Virus record (IMG/VR): IMGVR_UViG_3300032053_007845
Length of the DNA: 11,019 nucleotides
Source of the DNA: a virus
Strand: one strand, 5' to 3'
This document shows, piece after piece, positions 3,655-3,728 of the stretch. Made by a program: the position numbers and the translations under genes. The first letter of the stretch is position 1. Each line of letters starts with the position of its first letter. The notes beneath the pieces were generated by a model. It made no database searches. It saw only the letters and a program-made list of their open reading frames with translations, and had not been told where the DNA came from.

Positions 3655-3682
3655 AGCTTCTCCTTAAAAATCTTGGTGGAAC

Positions 3683-3716
3683 AGCGAGGCCGCCCGATAC
3701 ACGCGACGGCCTCGCT
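3683..3716 (-). promoter_or_regulatory. Intercistronic stem-loop between the MVP and Nudix genes, possibly a partial terminator, attenuator or mRNA 3'-stabilising hairpin.
   Basis: It is a perfect inverted repeat, aGCGAGGCCG (3683-3692) / CGGCCTCGCt (3707-3716), giving a 10-bp GC-rich stem with a 14-nt loop. It lies wholly within the 74-nt gap between the MVP stop (3729) and the Nudix start (3654). On the transcribed (minus) strand it is followed after ~12 nt by a TTTTT run and then the Nudix SD. Confidence 0.5.
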
Positions 3717-3728
3717 TTCATCTACCGC

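Follow-up and report, generated by a model that had tools for sequence, protein, structure and literature searches.

A stable stem-loop with no adjacent U-tract follows the MVP homologue gene of a phage-like contig and probably attenuates or protects its transcript

Introduction

The ends of genes that sit inside longer transcription units can be marked by RNA hairpins of several kinds. Phage T7 carries a canonical Rho-independent terminator, T-phi, after its major capsid gene 10, and intercistronic stem-loops that stabilise mRNA set unequal expression within operons in the case of the Rhodobacter puf operon hairpins and the E. coli malE-malF REP. Term-seq in Streptomyces has further identified stable hairpins with fewer than three U in the next 8 nt ('HS-U-lack') as real 3' ends with intermediate read-through (PMC8269248). 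Purified mycobacterial RNA polymerase, on the other hand, showed no termination in vitro at hairpins without U-tracts (PMC3993855).

Homologues of MVP have been reported from bacteria and phages in two preprints, neither of which mentions operons, neighbouring genes or terminators. In the human vault, ADP-ribose is reported to be bound in the shoulder (2026 preprint, 10.64898/2026.05.01.722283). Here we analyse a hairpin that lies directly behind an MVP-like gene in the IMG/VR record IMGVR_UViG_3300032053_007845. The window referred to throughout is the whole stretch of this record, 11,019 nt in length.

Genomic context of the hairpin

All genes of the window lie on the minus strand. The hairpin occupies a gap of 74 nt (3655-3728) that extends exactly from the TAA stop of the MVP-like gene to the GTG start of a Nudix hydrolase gene. 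In order of transcription, the features that surround the hairpin are as follows.

6882-7133, minus strand: 83-aa gene (g83), which heads a tightly coupled, overlapping g83-CPD-MVP unit
6451-6885, minus strand: 2H/CPD-like gene (PF08302, weak match), whose stop overlaps the MVP start by 8 nt (ATGGCTGA)
3729-6458, minus strand: MVP-like gene, 909 aa, with its TAA stop at 3731-3729 and an AAGGAG ribosome-binding site 6 nt before its ATG
3660-3665, minus strand: ribosome-binding site for Nudix (AAGGAG), placed 5 nt ahead of the GTG and read from the sequence
3271-3654, minus strand: Nudix hydrolase gene, 127 aa, with its GTG start at 3654-3652, the first gene downstream of the hairpin

Read on the sense strand from 3728 to 3655, the gap consists of GCGGTAGATGAA, the hairpin itself (AGCGAGGCCG TCGCGTGTATCGGG CGGCCTCGCT), GTTCCACCAAGA, TTTTT, AAGGAG and AAGCT, and then the Nudix GTG. 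This start codon is fixed by the Pfam NUDIX match, which covers residues 5-117 of the 127-aa ORF.

The identity of the 909-aa product as an MVP, which the earlier note had assumed, is borne out by its matches to Pfam MVP_shoulder (1e-26) and Vault_3, and to the PDB chains of human and rat MVP (E 1e-22) over residues 494-816, which correspond to the last repeats, the shoulder and the cap helix. By these sequence matches the ORF is a genuine MVP homologue. The identification relies on the match to the PDB chains; the AF2 model has a mean pLDDT of 58.6 and is confident only for residues 520-830, where it predicts a beta repeat together with an alpha/beta shoulder and a helix of 139 residues. The note's premise of 78 copies per particle is best regarded as carried over from eukaryotic vaults, the phage homologue being modelled confidently only for the pre-shoulder repeat, the shoulder and the cap helix.

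Relatives of this protein with 38-76% identity are found on similar contigs, on IMG/VR viral contigs mostly of 150-260 kb, and in uncultured-phage records of 462-735 kb. A first profile scan of genome contigs with an alignment of the phage-clade MVPs returned no relatives. Chromosomal MVP genes are common in Myxococcota MAGs, with 120 confirmed matches, the best 80 of which make up loci L030-L109. The pairing of the 2H/CPD-like gene with MVP is kept in eight of the nine relatives with gene calls examined at that point, and on this gene order the two form a conserved two-gene module that is absent from the two MVP preprints. The gene that follows MVP varies, being a Nudix gene in the window and in locus L026 and a zinc-ribbon protein gene, a tRNA-Ser or convergent genes elsewhere. 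The two Nudix proteins (window 3271-3654; L026 8854-9285) share little beyond the Nudix box. A link between vault-bound ADP-ribose and these Nudix genes is speculative.

The window aligns with positions 4281-15300 of an ENA metagenome contig of 16,658 bp (L001) at 99.45% identity, with 52 mismatches and 7 indels over 11 kb, and by this alignment it is a strain-level variant of L001. The hairpin gap is identical in the two. Among their differences is one changed patch inside a promoter-like site at 10537-10566 of the window. L001 has a single coding strand, 15 tRNA genes in two clusters, an HNH gene and two RNA-ligase-type genes, namely a PF09414 gene and an RLIG1-like gene that matches phrog_14301; the GC content is 62-63%. 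It looks like a phage, and the region looks like a tRNA/RNA-repair island that encloses a vault-protein homologue. The best matches of its RNA ligase are in Mycobacterium phages (45% identity), with phages of Ralstonia and Burkholderia matched too. This closeness to Mycobacterium phages, together with a leaderless-type promoter spacing described below, hints at an actinobacterial host.

A 250-nt intergenic region elsewhere in the window (9766-10015, minus strand) folds at -107.8 kcal/mol against -76.5 kcal/mol in shuffles (z -7.1), with a long closing helix that joins both ends. It has no Rfam match at E <= 1 and no counterpart in the other loci fetched, and is a possible new structured RNA within the RNA-repair/tRNA island. 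Another gap, of 111 nt at 8903-9013, gave the impression of strong structure but was rejected as a structured region (z -0.17).

Structure of the hairpin and its significance

The hairpin is built around one short feature.

3683-3716, minus strand: core RNA stem-loop, with its 5' arm at 3716-3707 and its 3' arm at 3692-3683

The arms AGCGAGGCCG and CGGCCTCGCT form a perfect inverted repeat of 10 bp with 14 nt between them, and the stem starts 12 nt past the MVP stop codon, in agreement with the earlier note's perfect 10-bp stem-loop at this place. The note's description of a GC stem is apt in that the stem is GC-rich (8 G-C pairs); the other two pairs are A-U, so that it is not pure GC. The fold of the sense RNA adds U-G, C-G, C-G and G-C pairs to give 14 bp (10 G-C) with one bulge and a 5-nt loop, UGUAU. 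The 34-nt core folds at -26.1 kcal/mol in the sense RNA (z -5.95), a stability reached by none of 200 shuffles. The antisense RNA, in which one U-G pair of the sense RNA is not possible, is less stable for that reason (-21.2 kcal/mol). When 106 nt of context are folded, z weakens to -1.64 owing to dilution by the flanks.

The palindrome taken alone is not significant. The window contains two perfect stems of 10 bp or more with a loop of 3-20 nt, where 0.44 would be expected, and one or more such stems are present in 28% of its dinucleotide shuffles. At 10902-10934, within the 5' end of a 114-aa ORF, there is a further perfect inverted repeat of 10 bp, whose arms TGGCGCGCAC and GTGCGCGCCA are separated by 13 nt; its L001 counterpart is of 9 bp only and differs in sequence. 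What makes the hairpin significant is the combination of its stability, which places the site in the top 1.2% of positions of the 16.6-kb contig, its placement in one of about seven intergenic gaps, and its recurrence at the same position in relatives. The frequency of such stems in shuffled sequence speaks for a chance palindrome in GC-rich DNA, but the location of this one directly after a stop codon, its rank in the contig and the same-place hairpins of 19 of 22 relatives make chance a very unlikely account.

The perfect 10-bp arms would also suit a DNA palindrome bound by a dimeric protein, as an operator, a partition site or a recombination site, and another palindrome of the contig does overlap a promoter-like site. 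Against this, the half-site is not above chance in the contig, where the 9-mer of the stem has 16 matches with at most one mismatch and 14.5 are expected; a spacer of 14 bp would be unusually long in an operator; the fold is stronger in the sense RNA than in the antisense; and at this place relatives carry hairpins of unrelated sequence that end in T tails, which is how RNA terminators behave. We consider a protein-binding DNA site highly improbable. The other palindrome, at L001 2443-2483 and outside the window, is a perfect 17-bp repeat with a 7-nt loop and is the strongest hairpin of the contig. Its extent includes part of a promoter-like site, TTGACA-N18-TAGAGT, and of the start codon of the gene that follows, so that a role as an operator or as a regulatory hairpin at the 5' end is conceivable.

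The stem-loop has no second copy in the contig and is in this respect outside the REP-like class of dispersed repeats. A covariance scan of the whole 16.6-kb contig with Rfam 15 (E <= 1) found tRNAs only and nothing at the hairpin, and an exact-pattern scan of IMG/VR viral contigs for both arms with any loop gave no match. With this pattern scan empty and the gap identical in L001, the window hairpin has no close relative with which covariation could be tested.

The tail of the stem and terminator class

Two further features lie around the core stem.

3666-3670, minus strand: UUUUU run, 12 nt after the core stem
3675-3726, minus strand: possible weak outer helix, GGU.AG / CU.ACC, with -30.3 to -31.8 kcal/mol in context

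Downstream of the stem lie the 12 nt GTTCCACCAAGA, then TTTTT (3670-3666) and AAGGAG (3665-3660), so that the T run stands at the distance of about 12 nt from the stem that had been noted before. The immediate tail, GUUCCACC, is poor in U, with 2 in 8 nt. Runs of five T are rare on the sense strand, with four in the 16.6-kb contig and three in the window. The outer helix is predicted to consist of weak pairs, to begin 2 nt past the stop codon and to end 4 nt before the U run. Starting as close as this to the stop codon, it would probably be opened by terminating ribosomes.

The hairpin has the stem of a canonical intrinsic terminator, being GC-rich, with a loop within the range of about 3-8 nt, 3' of a stop codon and on the sense strand. 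It lacks the U-tract, which in the canonical form extends for about 7-9 nt directly after the stem. Neither of two terminator scans (a simple tool scan and a rule that combines a hairpin with a T tail) calls a terminator at the hairpin, and the view that it is not a canonical intrinsic terminator, already expressed in the earlier note, is upheld. The simple scan gives a total of 7 sites in the window against 9.0 expected from shuffles, and the contig is without a strong canonical terminator anywhere, its best terminator-like site having -18.5 kcal/mol. With -26.1 kcal/mol and 2 U, the hairpin falls within the limits given for the HS-U-lack class (<= -23 kcal/mol; <3 U in 8 nt; PMC8269248).

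On the plus strand (3683-3725), the same stem is directly followed by TTTCATCT, with 5 T in 8 nt. Because of this tail, the stem resembles an antisense terminator more than a sense one. No plus-strand gene runs into the stem.

Substrates of RNase III are typically helices of about 20 bp or more, roughly two helical turns, usually arranged as two helices around an internal loop. RNase III processing as in T7 early mRNA, by which the upstream message would keep a hairpin that protects its 3' end, is suggested by the intercistronic position and by the internal loop between the upper and lower helices of the extended fold. The continuous helix of 14 bp is however short of that length and the lower helix comprises 2+3 weak pairs, which leaves RNase III processing a remote prospect.

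Conservation of the hairpin position across phage MVP loci

The comparison of the post-MVP region began with 19 distinct phage-type MVP loci and was extended to 22. In every locus, the 50-nt fold of greatest stability with a start 0-40 nt past the MVP stop was ranked against the same measure at all positions of the locus, and a locus was assigned to the positional family when it had an outstanding local hairpin within about 90 nt of the stop codon and on the strand of MVP. Of the first 19 loci, 16 fall in the top 1.6% of positions, seven of these 16 being the minimum of the entire locus, and all three added loci fall within the top 2.3%, for a total of 19 of 22. T-rich tails are found in all three added loci, and in about 14 of the 19 loci that have an outstanding hairpin. 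In the eight loci with gene calls, the post-MVP values are about -27 to -38 kcal/mol in seven and -19.8 kcal/mol in the eighth (L023). Against this, 100 other genes on the same strand have a median of -16 kcal/mol (p 1e-5 by Mann-Whitney test), and the median stays at -16 kcal/mol when the control is restricted to the 45 of them with a gap of at least 30 nt (p 4e-5).

A simple terminator rule, which calls a hairpin that ends at an 8-nt stretch with at least 5 T, finds a site after MVP in 11 of the 19 loci. In 10 of these 11 no other site of this type on the strand, over 8-15 kb, is as strong; typical values are about -32 kcal/mol as opposed to -17 kcal/mol for the next best. On these comparative grounds, the earlier idea of a terminator-type element after MVP is supported as regards a conserved position for transcript ends, marked by the outstanding hairpins and by the T tails that about 14 of them carry.

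This recurrence is particular to phage-type loci. In a control set of 72 chromosomal Myxococcota MVP loci, 18% are in the top 2% (median percentile 0.21), a weak enrichment, whereas about 86% of the phage-type loci are in the top 2% or so. The post-MVP hairpin therefore belongs to the phage type in particular and not to prokaryotic MVP genes universally.

The hairpins do not share a sequence. When the post-stop regions of eight relatives are aligned, homology extends no further than the stop codon and the hairpins are unalignable. Within the sub-clade of L027-L029 (L027 7754-7830, L029 8764-8840 and L028 6624-6700), compensatory changes are found in 7 of 23 predicted pairs, and the stems of L027 and L029 show, beside such changes, a matched indel in both arms. 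This pattern indicates selection on structure rather than on sequence. Position and structure kept while the sequence turns over is, as far as these alignments go, the pattern shown by terminators. In L027 and L029 the loop (TCCCCCTC) and the 3' flank (ACGTAGCTGCA) are identical although the stems have diverged.

The identical loop over differing stems, and the consistency of the hairpin in phage-type loci (19 of 22) relative to the 18% of chromosomal Myxococcota loci in the top 2%, would fit a cis-acting RNA tag, for instance a signal for packaging or one that resembles vault RNA, to be read by the MVP assembly or by partners of it. Neither sequence nor loop is conserved over the entire family, the T-rich tails are those of plain terminators, and there is no match to an Rfam family, all of which count against such a signal. 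We regard it as extremely unlikely that the hairpin is a tag, and give equally little credence to its being read by a phage vault-like shell or by RNA-repair partners. If it were one, the 3' end of the MVP transcript or a short terminated RNA would be the RNA component of a phage 'vault' particle.

The tail of the window hairpin is not alone in being poor in U, as L014, L006 and L023 have similar tails. Most relatives have T-rich tails and the window has none, which raises the question of a vestigial terminator, that is, of a hairpin left without present function after the loss of an ancestral U-tract. The failure of mycobacterial polymerase to terminate in vitro without a U-tract (PMC3993855) is in line with such a loss of function. 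The stem itself shows no decay, with 10 perfect pairs and four more at z -5.95, and L014 and L006 keep very strong stems despite the missing U-tract, which argues that the hairpin itself is maintained. We therefore judge a vestigial terminator unlikely.

Transcription unit and read-through

Three promoter-like sites are relevant to the transcription unit.

7210-7239, minus strand: promoter-like TTGAGC-N18-TAGAGT, 77 nt upstream of the 83-aa gene
10537-10566, minus strand: further promoter-like site
L001 2437-2466, sense strand: promoter-like TTGACA-N18-TAGAGT, intergenic

The hexamer TAGAGT occurs only twice in the 16.6-kb contig, with both strands searched. Each copy lies between genes on the sense strand, with TTGACA or TTGAGC 18 nt upstream of it. 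A third, weaker promoter candidate has the form TTGCAx-N18-TAGAAG. In two of the three promoter-like sites an ATG follows 7-8 nt after the -10 hexamer, and this spacing suggests leaderless transcripts. From its motif and location, we infer that the message ended or protected by the hairpin starts from the site at 7210-7239.

No motif of the TAGAGT type is present between MVP and the end of the contig, a stretch of roughly 5 kb of same-strand genes. The MVP-Nudix gap contains no TTGnnn-N18-TAGAGT promoter; a TAGATG is present in it, without a -35 partner. The ten genes downstream of MVP are separated by gaps of 37 nt or less, apart from the 74-nt gap itself, and the stem lies 28 nt from the Nudix start codon. 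Given this spacing, the tight packing and the lack of a downstream promoter motif, read-through is the most likely source of transcripts for Nudix and the later genes. An unrecognised type of promoter inside the downstream coding sequence is possible, and would count against an attenuator. Read-through of the signal at the MVP 3' end seems to be a trait of the family, since L026 has a fully canonical terminator 22 nt before its Nudix start codon. The read-through or attenuation that the earlier note had suggested from the displaced T run is thus called for by the 28-nt spacing and the promoter-free 5 kb, again by comparison among sequences. MVP and Nudix have the same AAGGAG ribosome-binding site, and any difference in their expression would consequently be set at the RNA level.

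If the hairpin were an efficient terminator that ends the operon, Nudix and the later genes would need a promoter that has gone unrecognised, and the hairpin would stand in line with the strong terminators that relatives have at this position. With the outer helix formed, UUUUU, a run of a kind that occurs only three times on the sense strand of the window, could then be no more than 4 nt from the stem base. Such a terminator is hard to reconcile with the 2 U in the 8 nt after the core stem, with an outer helix that is weak and would be melted by ribosomes terminating 2 nt before it, and with a Nudix start codon 28 nt from the stem and no promoter-like motif downstream. We hold efficient termination at this site to be rather improbable.

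Proposed role of the hairpin

In our assessment the hairpin is probably an intra-operon attenuator, a 3'-protective stem-loop, or both, closing the segment that runs from the promoter through g83 and the CPD-like gene to MVP. This reading is based on the stem being intact at the position of the family's terminators while the adjacent U-tract is missing. Transcripts would start at TTGAGC-N18-TAGAGT and run through g83, the CPD-like gene and MVP, and a minority of them would end at the stem-loop. We infer that 3' ends form at the hairpin and that this affects expression; these ends could arise by weak termination, by stalling of 3'-to-5' exonucleases after cleavage in the AU-rich AAGAUUUUUAAGG, or by both. 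The remaining transcripts would continue into Nudix and whatever follows it. As a net result, MVP-containing message would be more abundant and longer-lived than the downstream message.

Between the two versions, we slightly favour mRNA stability over weak termination. The tilt comes from the in vitro result with mycobacterial polymerase (PMC3993855), since true termination may be negligible here if hairpins without U-tracts fail in the same way.

The observation made in the earlier note is confirmed by this analysis, and its interpretation is partly supported by the comparison of loci. Its argument that a structural protein is to be made in excess over enzymes encoded downstream is half right. 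The 2H/CPD-like enzyme gene lies upstream of MVP with an 8-nt overlap and would share the protected transcript, which weakens the contrast between structural protein and enzymes.

As a gene-end signal the hairpin is of an ordinary kind, of which it is a new instance, and its form is non-canonical in that the U-tract is lacking. By itself it is routine; its value is local, in that it marks the end of the promoter-g83-CPD-MVP unit. That the best terminator-type structure of the neighbourhood follows MVP across the phage family suggests, indirectly, that MVP is expressed differently from its neighbours and probably at a higher level, as would be expected of a shell-forming protein. The hairpin also provides a small case for the role of stable hairpins without U-tracts in GC-rich systems. 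More unusual than the hairpin is its phage context, with an MVP, RNA ligases and 15 tRNAs.

Comparison with known systems

The hairpin shares with the canonical (L-shaped) terminators that follow phage structural genes a GC-rich stem-loop on the sense strand, a few nt past the stop codon of a putative shell protein. As with T7 T-phi, co-oriented genes follow that need read-through, and most relatives of the MVP locus have exactly the canonical form. The window copy departs from this type in having no U-tract next to the stem (GUUCCACC), its UUUUU being 12 nt away.

A second likeness is to intercistronic stabilising stem-loops such as those of puf and malE-malF. Here too a stable hairpin is placed between a presumed high-demand gene and the downstream genes of one unit, and an AU-rich single-stranded stretch that an endonuclease could cut follows it. 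It differs from the malE-malF REP in being a single copy and not a dispersed repeat, and its effect on decay is a prediction.

The 'I-shaped' or HS-U-lack ends mapped by Term-seq in Streptomyces clavuligerus (PMC8269248) have in common with the window hairpin a stability below -23 kcal/mol, fewer than 3 U in 8 nt and a short loop. They are also alike in their internal position in a multi-gene unit, where partial read-through is expected. Termination by hairpins of this class alone is disputed by in vitro work (PMC3993855). The 3' ends of the Streptomyces hairpins are mapped, whereas the window hairpin is known from sequence and its host is only hinted to be actinobacterial.
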